Shown here in pieces: positions 25,625 through 46,450 of a stretch of 64,000 nucleotides of DNA. A program made the translations under genes and the position numbers. The DNA comes from Candidatus Woesearchaeota archaeon (GTDB lineage: Archaea; Nanobdellota; Nanobdellia; Woesearchaeales; 0-14-0-80-44-23), in NCBI GenBank assembly GCA_038874135.1, contig JAVZCZ010000001.1, forward strand, positions 1 through 64,000, in the 5' to 3' direction. The first letter of the stretch is position 1. Every line of letters begins with the position of its first letter. The notes under the pieces were generated by a model. The model saw only the letters and a list, made by a program, of their open reading frames with translations, was not told where the DNA came from and did not search any database.

Positions 25625-26413
25625 TTATGCCTCCCTCAGCTTTTTTCTTATCTCAGCAGCCTTTTCTACTGCTATGTCTATCATCCTGTTTACATCCTCC
25701 ATGGTGAGTGGGCTGTCTCCACCCTTTTGCAGGGCGCAGATTGTTCCCTTTTCCGTTACTGCTGCTGTGAGCCTCGCATCCATGGTTTTTTCCTCTATCC
25801 TGCTCGGGTCCACTATGTAGCTGCTTCCAAACTTTATTACTGTTACGGGGATTGGCTCCCTGCTTATCGGGAGCTTCTGCTCGGTCTTTTCGTGGTAGTC
25901 AATTCTTTCTCCGTCAAACTTTGGAAGACGAGTGTCCTGCAGGGCTGCAAGTGCTGCTATGCCCGAAGCGTCTATCAGGTTGCCGTCAGCGTTTATGGTG
26001 CATATGTCTATATTGACTATCCAGCACTTCTCTCCGGGTACTATGCAGAGCTTTTTGAAGTCCAGGGTTTTTGCTTCCCTTATGCCCCTGTCAACCACCC
26101 TTGCGAGCTCTACAGCGTCGTCTCCCGGCGGTCCAGCTTCAAAGTCGGGACTTGCCAGGGGTAGGAATTCTGCGTTTACTGAGATTGTGCCCTCGTCAGG
26201 AGTGTCAGGGTAGGGAGTGCCCACTTCCATCTTTACCCCGCAGAGCACCTCGGTCTTTCCAATTCTGACTCTGGCTGAGCCCTCTGCAGTTTCTACTACT
26301 CCCTTTTCAACTGTTATCTCTCTGAATTCCAGAGGCTTTCTCCCGTCAAATCTTATTCCCTCTGCGAGTGCCTTTTTTATCTCCTCTTTAATCTCTTCGT
26401 CCATCCTAATCAC
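25625..26413 (-). CDS. rrp42: Exosome subunit Rrp42
   Basis: RFDGRKPLEFR, AEGSARVRIGKT, PYPDTPDEG, ELARVVDRGIRE. Confidence 0.95.
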   Translation of the reverse strand: MIRMDEEIKEEIKKALAEGIRFDGRKPLEFREITVEKGVVETAEGSARVRIGKTEVLCGVKMEVGTPYPDTPDEGTISVNAEFLPLASPDFEAGPPGDDAVELARVVDRGIREAKTLDFKKLCIVPGEKCWIVNIDICTINADGNLIDASGIAALAALQDTRLPKFDGERIDYHEKTEQKLPISREPIPVTVIKFGSSYIVDPSRIEEKTMDARLTAAVTEKGTICALQKGGDSPLTMEDVNRMIDIAVEKAAEIRKKLREA

Positions 26414-27123
26414 TCCTCCGCCTCATAGTCTTGGAATCTGCTCTTCAGGGCTTCAACCTGTATCTGATGTATCTTTGGGGCAACCTCCTTGATTAGTGAG
26501 AGGGCTTGCATGAGCTGCTCCTTTGTGACTTCGCCGTCCATCTGGAGCAGTGTTATCTCTCCCGTTCTTGGGAGTATCGCTACTGGTATGTCTGCCACCT
26601 CTCCCGGGTATGCCTCCTCGTCATAGCACAAATCTACCAGTATCTTGTCCTCAACCTTTCCTACTGCAACTGCTAAGGGCAGGTCTTTCATCTCTATTCC
26701 CGCGTCTGCGAGTGCTATCGCTGCGGCGCATATCCCCGCACACCTTGAGCCCGCGTCTGTGGATGATAGTTCTATGAATACATCTATTACCGAGTTTGGG
26801 AACTGCCTGAGGTCTAGGACTGGCAGAAGCGCCTTTTCTGTGACCATTGAAATCTCCTTTGACCTTCTGGAGCCTCCTGGTCTGACCCTCTCGCCCGCTC
26901 CTGAGAATGGCATCATGTTGTACCTGCACCTCAGGATTCCCTTTTCTGGGTCTTGTAAGAATTTTGGGAAGAGGTTTCTGGGCCCGTAAACTGAAGCGTA
27001 AGCTTCTGTCTTTCCCATCTTTACATATGCTGAGCCGTCCGCGTTCGGGATTACTCCCGCCTTGGCAGTCATGGGTCTGAGCTCGTTGAATTTTCTTCCG
27101 TCTATCCTCTTATCATAACTCAT
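26410..27123 (-). CDS. rrp41: Exosome catalytic subunit Rrp41 (start ATG 27123)
   Basis: RIDGRKFNELRP, ADGSAY, YNMMPFS, DAGSRC, LLQMDG. Confidence 0.95.
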   Translation of the reverse strand: MSYDKRIDGRKFNELRPMTAKAGVIPNADGSAYVKMGKTEAYASVYGPRNLFPKFLQDPEKGILRCRYNMMPFSGAGERVRPGGSRRSKEISMVTEKALLPVLDLRQFPNSVIDVFIELSSTDAGSRCAGICAAAIALADAGIEMKDLPLAVAVGKVEDKILVDLCYDEEAYPGEVADIPVAILPRTGEITLLQMDGEVTKEQLMQALSLIKEVAPKIHQIQVEALKSRFQDYEAEE

Positions 27124-31764: not shown

Positions 31765-33081
31765 TTATAGTTCTTGCACGCTGAGCACTCTGACCTTTAC
31801 ATCAGATGGCCTTGCCAGCACGCTGCTTCCAACCAGGATTTTCACATTTGCGTTGTCAGCCAGTCTTATGAGCTCCTTGTCTATGGGCCCGTCCAGCACT
31901 ATGGATTCAACTCCTGAGTTTATGTTTTTCAGGGTTCCGTACAGTTCTGCTACTGGAACCTTGCCCAGTATGTTTAGGCGCTCGTCAAATATGCAGGCTC
32001 CCCTTGTTCCTATCAGCTCTTCGCTCACCTTCTTGAAAACTTCTATCTGCTCCTGAGTGGGCTTTTCAAAATCCCTTCTGGAGCCCTGCTGGGGTCTCTC
32101 CCTGAGTTCCTGTCTCGGCTCGGGCCTCTTCTGTTCCCTTTCAGGCGTTCTGCCGTTCTGGATTCTTCTGACCTGCTGGTCGTGGTGCTGCTGGTAGAAT
32201 TCCTTTCTCTGCTCCTGCCTCTGGTGCTGCTGGTATTCCTGGTGTCCGTTTTCGCTTTCCAGCTTTATCTGTTCAACTGCTACCCTGCCCCTCAGGGCTT
32301 TTAGTATCTCTTTCTGGGTGAGCTCTTCTACTTCCTTTCCGTCAGGAGCCTTTGCAACATAGTCTATGTCGGTTACAGCCATCATCGCCTTCGTGATTAT
32401 GTCCCCGCCCCTGTCCCCGTCTACAAAGAGGGTGACGGTCTTCTGCCTGCAAAGCTCAGCTACATCTTCCGGGATGTTGGTGCCGTTGATTCCTATCACA
32501 TTCTTTATTCCGTGCTTTAGAAGGTTTAGAACATCTGCCCTGCCCTCTACTACTATTATCTCTTCAGAGTCGGCTATTGCAGGTCCTGCCGGGCTTCTGC
32601 TCTTTCCGTACTCCTGTACTTCCATCATCTTTATTGATTCTGCAACCTCTTGTGCCAGCTCTTGAGAGTCGGGCATTGTTGTCTTCATCCACGCCTGCAG
32701 GAGCTCCTTCGCCCTTTCCAGGATTTGCTTTCTCTTTATTATTCTGACATCTTCTATCTTATCAACTGTTATCTTTGCCTCGCAGGGGCCTATTCTCTGT
32801 ATTACTTCCAGGGCTGCGGCTACTATTGCTGTTTCAGCCATGTCCAGGGATGAGGGTATCTGTATTATTCCCGTGGTCTTTCCGCCTTTGGTGTCGTAGC
32901 TTACCTCTATCCTGCCTATTCTTCCTGAGCGTTGGAGCTCTCTCAGTTCAAGTTCAGTTCCGAGAAGGCCTTCTGTCTGTCCGAATATTGCTCCTATGAC
33001 ATCTGGCCTTTCTACAACTCCTTCTATTGAGATTGTAGCGTGTATTATGTATTTTGCTGATATCGGGCTTATTTTTCCCAT
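31765..33081 (-). CDS. dnaG: Archaeal DnaG (Toprim; exosome-associated)
   Basis: [45 protein letters not shown]; Gln-rich linker. Confidence 0.96.
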
Positions 33082-33119
33082 CTTAATCCCTCCTCTGAGT
33101 AAGTTTTTTGTTTATGATT

Positions 33120-33291
33120 TTTTCAAGCGGTTTTAGAACAAGCGATTTTTCACTTGTGGGAATGCGTGTTCGGAATTAGTTCAGAAATTCTAAAAGGATT
33201 TCGCTCCTTTCAGTCCTGAAATTTTTTCTAATTCCTATTTTGCATCCCTCAAATGAAAGTGTGAATGTGAAGCTTGTTCCAAACTTGAAAA
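33120..33291 (-). ncRNA. ~172-nt imperfect rod-shaped hairpin RNA of unknown class
   Basis: Nested stems UUUUCAAG/CUUGAAAA, UUUGGAACAAGC/GCUUGUUCUAAA, UUUCAUUUG/CAAGUGAAA, GGGA/UCCC, GGAAUUAG/CUAAUUCC, CUGAAAGGA/UCCUUUUAG; G-U pairs mainly on the minus strand. Confidence 0.55.
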
Positions 33292-33292
33292 T

Positions 33293-33373
33293 GCTTGTGG
33301 CCCGTTTTACTAACCCCCGGGTTCATTGCAGGGCTTTCGCCGTGTGCTCCCGCGGGTACTCTCGTAACGGGCC
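33293..33373 (-). ncRNA. Archaeal box H/ACA pseudouridylation guide RNA (predicted target 23S H69 Psi1917, E. coli numbering)
   Basis: P1 GGCCCGUU/AACGGGCC followed directly by ACA; pocket GAGAGU + UAGU; ACCC/GGGU upper stem; Kt-7-like K-turn; GAAA tetraloop; own TATA at 33398-33405. Confidence 0.8.
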
Positions 33374-33474
33374 TTGAGTTTAGTTTTTCTGTTCTTGTAT
33401 TTAAACCTTTGCGTTTGTTTCAACTTTAAAATATATTTTGTAGAAAATTCTTTTTTGGTACTCTGCTGTTCTTC

Positions 33475-36243
33475 TCACCTTTTTTCTTCCTGCCGGCTTT
33501 CAGTTGCTTCTTGTTCCTCATTCCAAATCTTTTCGTATTCGTTCTCGTTTTCGTTCCAGCTCTTTTGCTCTTTCGTATCTGTGCTTATGCCCTGTTCAAG
33601 TTCCGCTGCTTCTTTGCTCTTCTTTCCAATCTTGGCAATGACCTGCCTGTGCATCCTTCTTAGGAATTCTGTTCGGTCTTCCATCTTGAGCAGGTCTAGG
33701 TAGCCCTGCGCTATGAGGTTGAATGCGAATGGGCTGGGAATTTTGGTGTTTATCTCTGAAATCTTTATGCTGCCCTCTTCTATTCCCCTTACTACTTTTG
33801 AGGCGTTTTCTATGTCCATGACATCGTGCAGGACTTCCCTTCTCGCCTCTCTGAGTATGCAGAAGTCCGGGGATATCCTCTTGACTGCGTTTATAAGTAT
33901 CATTGAGGAGACCTGCTGTCTGCCCACGCTTTGTGTTCTTCCCTTGTAGCTTCTGAGTATCATTAGGGCACGGGCTGCGCAGTGTCTGAACCTTCTTGCG
34001 AGCACTTCTGTCTTGTCTATTGCTGCTTTCATCACTAGTTCAAGCTTGTCACTCTTCAGCATCTTCAGAGCCTTTAATGCCTGCACGGGCTTTTTTGAGG
34101 CTATGTAGAAGCCGTTATCGTTGATTCCTATCTCAATATCTGTGTGCTGTATGCTTGCAGCTGCGTAGCCGACTGCTCTTGAGAGGCAATCGTTGACTCT
34201 TCTTCCGTAGAGCGTGTGGAATATTGCGTAGTGCTTCTGCTTTTCCCGGTTTCCCTCTTCTGAGTAGTATTCTATTACTATCTTTCTGTCATGAGGTATC
34301 TCAGCGTATAGGTGCTGTTCTAGCATGTATCTGTATATTGCGCTTGCCGAGTTTTCGTCTACATACAGGTAGGAGTTTATGAATTTTAGGATTTCTCCTT
34401 TCGGTTCTCCAGCTTTTAACTTTTCTTCTATTAGGCGTCTGAATGAGCCGATTGCCAGTGCCAGGTCAAAGCTTAGCGGTAGCGTTTCTGAGAACCACGA
34501 GGGAACTGTGGGCATCTTGCCCTCTGCTGCGGAGACATATGCTACCTGGCCCCTTGCATATTTGAAGCGGTATGTTTCTCCGCCGAGTACAAATATGTCT
34601 CCCGGTTTGAGCTTTTCCAGGAAAGCCTCGTCAATCTTGCCTATGATTGTTTCTCCTTCCTTGACTACTACTGCGCTCTCTTCAGGTATGGTGCCTATGT
34701 TGGTCATGTACAGCATTCTCATGAGCGGGCCCCTTCTGCCTATCATTCCAGTTTCAGGATCGTACCATATCTTTGCGTATATGTGTCTGTCTTCCAGGTT
34801 TCCGTACTGGCCTGTCAGATAATCTATTACCTCGTTGTAGTCTCTTCTTTCCAGGTTGTGGTAGCAGTAGCTCCTTTTTATGAGTTTGAAGAGTTCTTCT
34901 ATGTGTATCTTTTGAGAAACTGCGATTCCTACTATCTGCTGTGCCAGTACGTCCAGGCAGTTTGTGGGTATGTGTATCCTGTCTATCTTCTTTTCAATTG
35001 CCTCTTTTAGCAGTACGCTGCACTCTACCAGGTCGTCCCTGTCCAGCACGACCATTCTTCCAACTGTTGTGTCTGAGAGTCTATGCCCGCTTCTGCCTAT
35101 TCTTTGTAGGGCTCTTGCAACTGTTTTCGGGCTTCCTAATAGTATTACCAGGTCTATGTAGCCTATGTCAATTCCCAGTTCTAAGGAAGTGCTGGACACT
35201 ATGCATTTCAGCCTGCCCTCTCTAAGCCTTCTTTCCATGTCCAAGCGGTGTGATTTGGAGAGTGAGCCGTGGTGCGCTCCTATTCTGGGTATGTCTTCCG
35301 GGGCAGTGTTTTCATCTATGAGGACATAGTTTTTTGGGAACTTTTCTTTAAGGTGATAGACCACCCTTTCAGTGGCTGATCTCGTGTTTGTGAATATGAG
35401 GGTTGTCTTGTGCGCCTGTATCAGGCTGTCTAGGAGCTGGTACATCTTGTCGTGCATTGTTTGAAATTCTGCTTCTATCAGGTCTGGAACCGGGCTGAGC
35501 ACTTTTAGGTCCATCTTCTTTATTGAGTCAACATTGATTATGGTGCAGTCCCTCTCTCTTCCCGAATCTTCATAGCCTACGAGGAATTTGGCAACTTCTT
35601 CTATAGGCGCTATGGTTGCTGAAAGTCCTATTCTTGAGAAGTGGTTTTCCTGCTGCATTCTTTCTATGCTTAGTGAGAGATGAACGCCCCTCTTGCTCTC
35701 TGCAAGGGCGTGTATCTCATCTACTATGAGCCACTCCACTCCTTTTAGGAGTGTGCTGAACTTGGCTGAGGAGAGCATTATTCCAAGGGATTCAGGGGTT
35801 GTTATTAGTATGTGCGGCGGGCTTTTGAGCATCTGCGCCTTCTGGCTCTGTGTAGTGTCTCCTGTTCTGACAGCAACCCTTATTCCAAGCTTTTTTCCGA
35901 GAATTTGCTCCATCTCTCTGAGCGGGTTTTTAAGGTTTACTTCAATGTCGTGGTTTAACGCTTTTAATGGCGATACATAGACGCAGTACACTTTATCTTC
36001 CAGCAGTTCTTTCTGTGACAGGTCTACAAGCTCGTTCAGTATTGAGAGGAAGGCTGTCAATGTTTTGGTGCTTCCTGTTGGAGCGCTTACTAGGACATTC
36101 TTTCTTGAGTGTATCTCCATAACTGCGAGCCTTTGAGGTAAGGAGAACTCTTTGAACTTTGAGAAGAACCACTTTTCAACCAGCGGGTGAAGTATTCTTC
36201 TTATCTGCTCTTCACTGTCCGGCTCCTGTTTGTATTCTAGCAT
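33475..36243 (-). CDS. lhr: Lhr-family SF2 helicase (archaeal Lhr-core type)
   Basis: APTGSTKT, SPLKALNHD, ITTPESL, DEIH, GLSAT, HHGSLS, LELGIDIG, QRIGRSGH. Confidence 0.95.
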   Translation of the reverse strand: MLEYKQEPDSEEQIRRILHPLVEKWFFSKFKEFSLPQRLAVMEIHSRKNVLVSAPTGSTKTLTAFLSILNELVDLSQKELLEDKVYCVYVSPLKALNHDIEVNLKNPLREMEQILGKKLGIRVAVRTGDTTQSQKAQMLKSPPHILITTPESLGIMLSSAKFSTLLKGVEWLIVDEIHALAESKRGVHLSLSIERMQQENHFSRIGLSATIAPIEEVAKFLVGYEDSGRERDCTIINVDSIKKMDLKVLSPVPDLIEAEFQTMHDKMYQLLDSLIQAHKTTLIFTNTRSATERVVYHLKEKFPKNYVLIDENTAPEDIPRIGAHHGSLSKSHRLDMERRLREGRLKCIVSSTSLELGIDIGYIDLVILLGSPKTVARALQRIGRSGHRLSDTTVGRMVVLDRDDLVECSVLLKEAIEKKIDRIHIPTNCLDVLAQQIVGIAVSQKIHIEELFKLIKRSYCYHNLERRDYNEVIDYLTGQYGNLEDRHIYAKIWYDPETGMIGRRGPLMRMLYMTNIGTIPEESAVVVKEGETIIGKIDEAFLEKLKPGDIFVLGGETYRFKYARGQVAYVSAAEGKMPTVPSWFSETLPLSFDLALAIGSFRRLIEEKLKAGEPKGEILKFINSYLYVDENSASAIYRYMLEQHLYAEIPHDRKIVIEYYSEEGNREKQKHYAIFHTLYGRRVNDCLSRAVGYAAASIQHTDIEIGINDNGFYIASKKPVQALKALKMLKSDKLELVMKAAIDKTEVLARRFRHCAARALMILRSYKGRTQSVGRQQVSSMILINAVKRISPDFCILREARREVLHDVMDIENASKVVRGIEEGSIKISEINTKIPSPFAFNLIAQGYLDLLKMEDRTEFLRRMHRQVIAKIGKKSKEAAELEQGISTDTKEQKSWNENENEYEKIWNEEQEATESRQEEKR

Positions 36244-45954: not shown

Positions 45955-46065
45955 TGGGCCGGAGGGGATTCGGACCCCCGACAACCTGATTAAAAGTCAG
46001 GTGCGCTATTGCCCACGACACCTTGACATTTTCATGGTGAGCGCTCCAGGCTGCGCCACCGGCCC
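45955..46065 (-). tRNA. tRNA-Lys(TTT) with 37-nt non-canonical D-loop intron (46009-46045)
   Basis: GGGCCGG/CCGGCCC-A; CCTGA-CTTTTAA-TCAGG; BHB with GCCU/GGGC helix and GG|A, AA|U bulges regenerates D-loop AGCCUGGUA. Confidence 0.9.
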
Positions 46066-46070
46066 AAAAA

Positions 46071-46143
46071 CGCCCTGGCCGGGATTTGAACCCGGGTCGG
46101 AGCCGTGACAGGGCTCCATGATAGGCCGCTACACTACCAGGGC
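46071..46143 (-). tRNA. tRNA-Asp(GTC)
   Basis: GCCCTGG/CCAGGGC-G; GAGCC-CTGTCAC-GGCTC; GGTTCAAATCC. Confidence 0.96.
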
Positions 46144-46327: not shown

Positions 46328-46450
46328 TCCCCTCCCCCGGACTTGAACCAGGAACCTTCCGGTGACGGCTGTCCCGATTTCATTCATGCTCTCTCGGAGT
46401 TGTCTTCGGGAATCTACAGCCGGACGCTCTAACCATTGAGCTAGGAGGGG
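46328..46450 (-). tRNA. tRNA-Tyr(GTA) with 50-nt intron at 37/38 (46364-46413)
   Basis: CCCCTCC/GGAGGGG-A (C1-G72); TCCGG-CTGTAG[intron]A-CCGGA; GGTTCAAGTCC. Confidence 0.9.

Follow-up and report, generated by a model that had tools for sequence, protein, structure and literature searches.

A conserved RNA helix enclosing a UCAY run 5' of dnaG in Woesearchaeales-type archaea: a candidate leader of the dnaG mRNA

Background

In the genome of a Candidatus Woesearchaeota archaeon, assembled as one contig (910 kb, 99%-complete), the 393-nt gap between dnaG and the end of an Lhr-type helicase gene (33475) contains an H/ACA-type hairpin and, next to it, a rod-shaped RNA. What is this rod, and what might it do in front of dnaG? 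An original prediction, made from the letters of the first 64 kb of the contig (64,000 nt, hereafter the window), set three identities side by side: a degenerate SRP RNA, a switchable leader controlling DnaG, and a processing stem that releases the guide RNA; a mobile palindrome was the alternative named there. The role of the gene product is itself debated, DnaG being seen either as a primase or as an RNA-binding subunit of the exosome. In the present study, we followed the rod through related genomes and asked which part of it is conserved and where.

Results

The locus and the fold of the rod

The features of the locus to which we refer below, all on the minus (dnaG-sense) strand, are the following.

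31765..33081, minus strand: dnaG, 438 aa, archaeal DnaG with Toprim domain; ATG at 33081
33089..33093, minus strand: Shine-Dalgarno sequence GGAGG of dnaG, 7 nt 5' of the ATG at 33081, as read from the sequence
33111..33118, minus strand: weaker TATA-like ATCATAAA after GAAAAA (PWM score 8.6)
33121..33128, minus strand: P0 3' arm GCUUGAAA of the MFE fold
33135..33143, minus strand: P1 3' arm GCUUGUUCU, followed by a purine; pairs with 33280-33272, and its family form CUUGUUCU is nearly invariant
33148..33258, minus strand: variable interior, a 111-nt rod of six helices that includes the apex (33198-33222)
33259..33271, minus strand: WUCAY platform UUCACAUUCACAC, a 13-nt internal loop, unpaired in the MFE fold
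33272..33280, minus strand: P1 5' arm GGAACAAGC of the conserved closing helix; aligns with AGAACAAGC-type arms (36 distinct sequences)
33283..33290, minus strand: P0 5' arm UUUCAAGU of the lineage-specific outer helix; MFE pairing of 33290-33283 with 33128-33121
33296..33373, minus strand: H/ACA-type hairpin with an 8-bp basal stem, an internal pocket and an upper stem, then ACA at 33298-33296
33398..33405, minus strand: putative H/ACA promoter, TATA TTTAAATA with BRE-like GCAAAGG (PWM score 10.8, top of the gap)

On the dnaG-sense strand, positions 33120-33291 fold into a single unbranched rod of 59 bp in eight nested helices, with an MFE of -62.7 kcal/mol; dinucleotide shuffles had a mean of -29.1 +/- 3.6 kcal/mol (z -9.45), and none of 200 was as good. 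The plus strand reached -49.9 kcal/mol (z -4.2), and the sense-strand fold contains five G-U/U-G pairs. Thus, both the nested stems that had been read between the guide and dnaG and the asymmetry that had been noted in favor of the dnaG strand are real. Here, P0 prolongs P1 on the outside and the 111-nt rod prolongs it on the inside, and a third UCAU (33256-33253) sits within the next helix, beyond the WUCAY platform. A relative of the same genus has, at the place of P0, an outer helix of another sequence (UUUUAAUUCAGU/ACUGAAUUAAGA). The GC content of the rod is 35%, compared with 41% for the genome, 62% for the tRNAs, 62% for the H/ACA hairpin and 57% for the SRP RNA; this composition, below that of the genome and of its stable RNAs, fits a leader and not a housekeeping RNA.

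The H/ACA-type hairpin folds with -38 kcal/mol (z -4.5), and its ACA box is 5 nt from P0 and 16 nt from P1. No Rfam family matched the hairpin (33296-33373) at the gathering score. It is kept 5' of dnaG in 10 relatives (whole-genome BLASTN), at 21 contig loci and in one genome of another order. The dnaG genes of most relatives have a GGAGG-type site at equal spacing, with weaker variants in a few. Among the public runs listed, the stretch was matched in two DNA runs, both of one hot-springs metagenome study, which is possibly the source sample, and in no RNA run.

Some further features of this genome may be mentioned. An adjacent pair of RNase PH-domain genes (Rrp41/Rrp42-type exosome core) lies at 25922-27084 on the minus strand, 6 kb away from dnaG. 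A beta-CASP gene occurs only once in the genome (150184-150561; a 636-aa frame, of the size of aCPSF1). In DnaG itself, a low-complexity linker rich in Gln, Glu and Arg (residues about 278-345; 31990-32250) joins the Toprim region to the C-terminal domain, and within it a 31-nt imperfect direct repeat occurs (32166-32196 and 32205-32235); relatives align only with the parts on the two sides of the linker.

The apex and the question of an SRP RNA

The apex of the rod had been compared with SRP helix 8, and two mutually exclusive folds had been described for it. Both folds exist, the 9-bp alternative (CUGAAAGGA/UCCUUUUAG) being that of the MFE. However, when the helix-8-like apex (AUUUC...GAAAU) is forced, the rod reaches only -49.6 kcal/mol, 13 kcal/mol above the MFE, and the apex is unconserved even within the genus (BLASTN). 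In its shape, and in having a GNRA-like loop close to an internal loop that is asymmetric, the rod does resemble the SRP RNA of archaea (Rfam RF01857) and the small SRP RNA of bacteria. Unlike these RNAs, it is without a model match: in a permissive search of 32900-33600 with all 4227 Rfam models, no SRP family was found at E<=10, and none reached the gathering score in the window. Moreover, the genome has its own full-length canonical Archaea_SRP RNA (G000:C1:549845-550116; 146.5 bits versus a cut-off of 96.5).

Nor does the rod behave as a mobile element. BLASTN of 33100-33300 against the 910-kb genome returned the query itself and chance matches of 14-29 nt, no dispersed copy or repeat family was seen in the window or the genome, and the covariance model described below has one match, in a position (H/ACA, module, dnaG) that is fixed in 15 of 15 matches over two orders. 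A degenerate 4.5S-like SRP RNA, a MITE or another mobile palindrome thus has next to no probability, its superficial likeness to the helix-8 motif and its hairpin shape notwithstanding, and we abandon these identities.

Other Rfam matches to 32900-33600 (Lnt RNA with 24 bits versus a cut-off of 55, MIR1435 and snoU61) were far below threshold and were treated as chance. No Rfam family matched the rod, and a literature search found no published description of the module presented in the next section, which is apparently an undescribed RNA.

A closing helix and a UCAY run are conserved

The module came to light when the spacers that separate dnaG from the H/ACA gene were extracted from relatives. 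It consists of P1 (5'-AGRAYAAG.../...CUUGUUCU-3'), two to six WUCAY repeats directly inside this helix, and a variable hairpin interior. Only the base of the rod is conserved, namely P1 and the G-poor, mostly unpaired WUCAY run. The interiors of relatives (40-180 nt; distance between the P1 arms, 55-200 nt) differ in sequence and shape and are unalignable, and the interior of the rod studied here had no BLASTN similarity in genomes of the same genus or family, unlike the adjoining H/ACA gene, which was found in many. The earlier suggestion of a DnaG leader is the one closest to the comparative data, although in another form: conservation is confined to the basal helix and the UCAY run, and the apex switch on which the suggestion was built is lineage-specific.

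In the alignment of 21 first copies, 91% of P1 is paired, and double changes occur at five pairs. Pair 13/207 occurs as CG (10), UA (9) and AU (2) with zero mismatches, pair 9/211 as CG (17), UA (2) and UG (2), and another P1 pair as AU (20) and GC (1). None of 500 column shuffles reached the covariation score of P1, and pairing fell to 38-47% when the 3' partner was slid by 1-3 columns; RNAalifold independently predicted exactly the nine P1 pairs and nothing else. Over 36 distinct sequences, the first nine pairs of P1 comprise 287 Watson-Crick, 26 G-U/U-G, two A-C and nine other combinations, a G-U excess to which the purine-rich 5' arm is expected to contribute and that comes from related, non-independent genomes. 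The double changes and this excess, taken together, speak for a helix formed by RNA of the dnaG strand; in 27 of the 36 modules, the better fold is that of the sense strand.

In the 45 nt after the P1 5' arm, TCA is 7.45-fold enriched, with about 3.4 copies per module and the consensus WUCAY (U more frequent than C at Y). G makes up 5.6% of the first 30 nt after the arm versus 15.7% overall, and the predicted mean unpaired probability of the UCAY sites is 0.58 versus 0.38 overall. That the module is a conserved RNA structure linked to dnaG we regard as very likely.

If the module instead acted as DNA, as a promoter or operator or as a palindrome, the inverted repeat and the TCA boxes would be protein sites. 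Such an element would account for the A-rich stretches before the P1 3' arm, which look like TATA boxes; if they are such boxes, part of the module would lie in promoter DNA, and this counts against a leader. The 3' arm (CTTGTTCT) is also more conserved than the 5' arm. However, the latter asymmetry is predicted by an RNA helix with a purine-rich 5' arm, because A-to-G and C-to-U changes in that arm are tolerated as wobbles. In addition, the arms are separated by a variable distance of 55 to 200 nt, the second copies described below change both arms together to unrelated sequences, the mismatches are of the G-U type on one strand only (26 versus 2), and the TCA boxes are always at the dnaG-sense 5' side. 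We thus consider a DNA-level element highly improbable.

Two further identities were tried and rejected. As a second H/ACA hairpin, the module would need ANA after P1, and the three bases at this place agree with ANA in no more than about 10 of 22 relatives, while in six the first of them is G; the 5' loop ranges from 13 to more than 35 nt, the 3' side is unconserved, and there is no fixed pocket. The SmAP2 motif GGAUGGAUAUUAGGAAAUG (PMC5587771) is unlike the G-poor UCAY run.

The module is tied to dnaG

A covariance model was built from 21 relatives, and 150 genomes of the order were sampled with strict filters. In the genome studied here, the model had exactly one match, the rod (45.8 bits). 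Among the sampled genomes, 14 of the 150 were matched, each once, and so was one genome from a different order within the class. All 15 matches lie directly 5' of dnaG, mostly just past the H/ACA gene. The fetched dnaG loci gave the same picture, with about 30 distinct Woesearchaeota genomes that match the model, all immediately upstream of dnaG; Methanoperedens, Poseidoniales and other fetched dnaG loci had no match. Model scores for the sense strand were above those for the antisense strand by 25-45 bits. The locus from the other order (L128; G164:C3:13151-13261) has an H/ACA hairpin and, after 19 nt, P1 (AGAACAAGU/ACUUGUUCU) with a UCAY run, with dnaG 25 nt further on. This layout is the same as that of the window, and thus the family reaches beyond one order.

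When the genome of the rod was searched for further AG...TTCT helices that carry TCA runs, and for clusters of WTCAY free of G, the only matches looked like chance and lay mostly within ORFs; no further site that combines a UCAY run and P1, and thus no regulon, was found. The words of the P1 arms occur at chance frequency only, in the window as well as in the genome.

Promoters and the extent of the transcript

Putative promoters were scored with a PWM trained on the tRNA promoters of this genome, which are very regular (AAAAN-TTTAAATA/TTTTATAA; the first T precedes the mature 5' end by about 34 nt). One of the tRNA matches (46328-46450, minus strand), clustered with two other tRNA genes (45955-46143), is 123 nt in length, long enough for an intron. 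The TATA box of the H/ACA gene is the sole strong match in 33079-33480 and predicts a start at about 33375-33378, at the foot of the guide hairpin. The weaker TATA-like site at 33111-33118 predicts a start (33088-33091) inside the ribosome-binding site, and it is thus a doubtful dnaG promoter. No TATA box was found by the PWM between ACA and the rod in this genome. The apex (33190-33204, minus strand) holds GCGAAAUCCUUUUAGAA, which is like the BRE/TATA of tRNA promoters; its score is only 4.1, and the likeness is probably due to chance. With the H/ACA promoter as the only strong one, and with P0 and P1 so close to the ACA box, the guide RNA, the rod and dnaG most likely form one primary transcript from the H/ACA promoter in this genome, as predicted by the promoter model.

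The architecture differs among relatives. In about 12 of 32, a TATA-like box was scored in the stretch from the guide to the module, mostly 25-27 nt (range, 23-37) before the first base of P1, a spacing that often spans a T|A junction; many others have no good TATA box at all before the module. The distance from TATA to start was calibrated on the H/ACA and tRNA genes as the first T plus 27 to 30 nt, and a TATA box at the above spacing would place P1 at or near the predicted +1 in those relatives. Against the leader reading, a TATA box at -22 to -24 in some relatives puts the calibrated start 3-8 nt inside the P1 5' arm. On the 3' side, a T5 run occurs within 40 nt after P1 in only 2 of 34 modules, and the ATG follows the end of the last module by 18-53 nt; in many relatives, only 4-17 nt separate that end from the Shine-Dalgarno sequence of dnaG. 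Read-through into dnaG is therefore expected, and for the most part there is no room for a separate dnaG promoter.

These data bear on whether the module is a small RNA gene of its own, its product acting in trans or within an RNP, that has simply stayed where it is, flanked by the H/ACA gene and dnaG. A TATA-like box just 5' of P1 in about 12 of 32 relatives would suit such a gene, stable small RNAs typically have their two ends joined by a helix, and the module, present once per genome, is conserved as a whole. However, 32 of the 34 modules lack a terminator-like T-run after P1, many of the last modules leave no space for a promoter of dnaG before its Shine-Dalgarno sequence, and the second copies in tandem have no promoters of their own; the GC content of 35% is unlike that of the stable RNAs of this genome, and the association with dnaG has no exception among 15 matches. 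A separate RNA is, in our judgment, rather unlikely.

The guide-releasing stem of the original prediction can be judged from the same layout. In this form, cleavage of a guide-rod-dnaG precursor between ACA and P0 or P1 would free the H/ACA RNA, and the helix would block 5'-to-3' trimming into dnaG, so that the module would be a processing or insulator stem. The tight arrangement here agrees with it (P0 5 nt past ACA, and P1 only 16 nt past it with no TATA box between), the genome of the other order is equally tight (19 nt), and some relatives have UCAY/CA sites between ACA and P1 too. What it does not explain is that the conserved UCAY run is enclosed by P1 instead of standing in the spacer from the guide to P1; moreover, the TATA-like box between guide and module in about 12 of 32 relatives means that guide release is not the general role. 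As the explanation of the module we hold the processing stem to be unlikely, somewhat more so than a separate RNA; for this genome, it is compatible with a leader.

Second modules in tandem and the question of upstream frames

In about 16 relatives, a second module stands between the first module and dnaG (for example, L120:1607-1718, L040:1358-1500, L121:1622-1741 and L123). The closing helices of the second copies are unrelated to P1 and fully covarying (AGAAAGAGUG/CGCUCUUUCU, GGAAGGGCAUCAAA/UUUGAUGCUCCUUCU and AGAAGAGGUACU/AGUACUUCUUCU); again they end in UCU, and again they carry a UCAY run. Eight of the 16 have a Shine-Dalgarno-like 5' arm (GAGGAG, GGGGAG) with an AUG 5-9 nt further on, inside the UCAY run. 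The frames that begin there are rich in Ile and Phe and have 14-23 codons, and some of them stop at the P1 3' arm. From their sequences, second copies with such an arm are a possible uORF variant of the module. The window has neither a second module copy nor such a frame.

A leader that works through a small reading frame enclosed by the helix would follow from these eight copies if they stood for the family. However, the first-type modules do not share their features. Their 5' arm (AGAACAAGC) is not Shine-Dalgarno-like, a conserved ATG upstream ORF was not found in them, and 8 of 22 have no ATG frame of at least six codons. The sole AUG of the module in the window directly abuts GAGGG and opens five codons. 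The peptides are unconserved, and the TCA spacing is not 3-periodic (25 of 57 distances are multiples of 3). We therefore give an upstream frame as the general principle very little credit.

Discussion

A probable leader module of the dnaG mRNA

Two features of a cis-acting leader were found for the module: a constant position 5' of one orthologous gene (15 of 15 model matches and all matches at the fetched loci) and, for P1, a pairing kept by compensatory changes. We favor, with moderate confidence, the explanation that the rod represents, in a form enlarged in this genome, a conserved 5' leader module of the dnaG mRNA in Woesearchaeales-type (DPANN) archaea; that the module acts in cis as a leader appears slightly better founded still, both judgments being drawn from comparison of sequences. 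The long stable interior and P0 may simply stabilize the 9-bp AU-rich P1 in a warm habitat, as the hot-spring source and the tRNAs with 62% GC suggest.

How such a leader would work can be proposed only tentatively, and the following scheme of a clamp and a platform may well prove wrong. P1, here together with P0, would hold the extreme 5' terminus of the dnaG mRNA in base pairs and so shield it from 5'-end-dependent decay. The UCAY run, held open inside the helix, would be a landing or cleavage site for a factor that binds single-stranded RNA. Archaeal KH proteins include aCPSF1, Rrp4 and Dim2, and the documented RNA preference of DnaG is for poly(A), not UCAU; we know of no archaeal protein that is a reader of UCAY. 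Candidate readers would be the KH-domain endonuclease aCPSF1, or DnaG together with the exosome cap, and with either reader the level of DnaG would be set post-transcriptionally. DnaG is an RNA-binding subunit of the exosome (PMC4227792). The aCPSF1 of Pyrococcus, a beta-CASP nuclease with KH domains, prefers single-stranded CA (PMC3553952), and the KH domains of aCPSF1 are reported to recognize U-tracts (PMC8716108). Genes for candidate partners are present in this genome (Rrp41/Rrp42-type genes and one 636-aa beta-CASP). Pairing between the UCAY loop and the ribosome-binding/start region of dnaG was no better than in shuffles at 21 loci.

A bolder form of this scheme, which we regard as doubtful, is that the UCAU/UCAC run is an operator on the dnaG message, read by DnaG with the exosome cap or by aCPSF1. 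It would close a feedback loop on a subunit of the RNA-decay machinery, coupled in this genome to the release of the H/ACA guide from one and the same precursor.

Comparison with known leaders and binding platforms

Bacterial ribonuclease genes, above all pnp (PNPase) of E. coli and also rne and rnc, have autoregulatory 5' leaders, in which a helix controls the stability of the ribonuclease's own mRNA; PNPase corresponds in bacteria to the archaeal exosome. The dnaG module, as predicted here, resembles them in that the message for a component of RNA degradation would begin with a long, stable helix. Unlike the pnp leader, in which the UCAY run has no counterpart, the module is archaeal and has no homology to it in sequence or structure, and RNase III processing and feedback are known for the bacterial leaders only. 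The ompA and papA leaders carry 5'-terminal stem-loops that block 5'-end-dependent decay, for which a simple hairpin suffices. The predicted P1 likewise starts at or within a few nt of the 5' end; unlike those stabilizers, the long-range helix of the module encloses 55-200 nt and a conserved run of repeats.

For the UCAY run itself, binding platforms of other proteins offer a parallel. The KH domains of Nova bind clusters of UCAY/YCAY, and TRAP reads the (G/U)AG repeats of the Bacillus trp leader. Like these platforms, the module has several copies of a motif of 3-5 nt, irregularly spaced in an unstructured G-poor stretch, and UCAU/UCAC is the Nova core, a likeness that is one of resemblance. 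The likenesses to leaders and to KH clusters are analogies and not memberships. As to its kind, we place the module, with moderate confidence, among the structured mRNA leaders.

Conclusions

To our knowledge, few cis-acting regulatory RNAs have been described in archaea, and gene control in the DPANN archaea, which cannot yet be grown alone, has hardly been studied. The present analysis corrects a tempting mis-annotation, in that the rod is not a hidden SRP RNA. If the run of UCAU/UCAC were indeed an operator, the feedback loop would be comparable to the autoregulation of PNPase, RNase E and RNase III in bacteria. As a gene-specific leader in two orders with a simple and mutable architecture, the module would provide a testable handle on how the level of DnaG is controlled.
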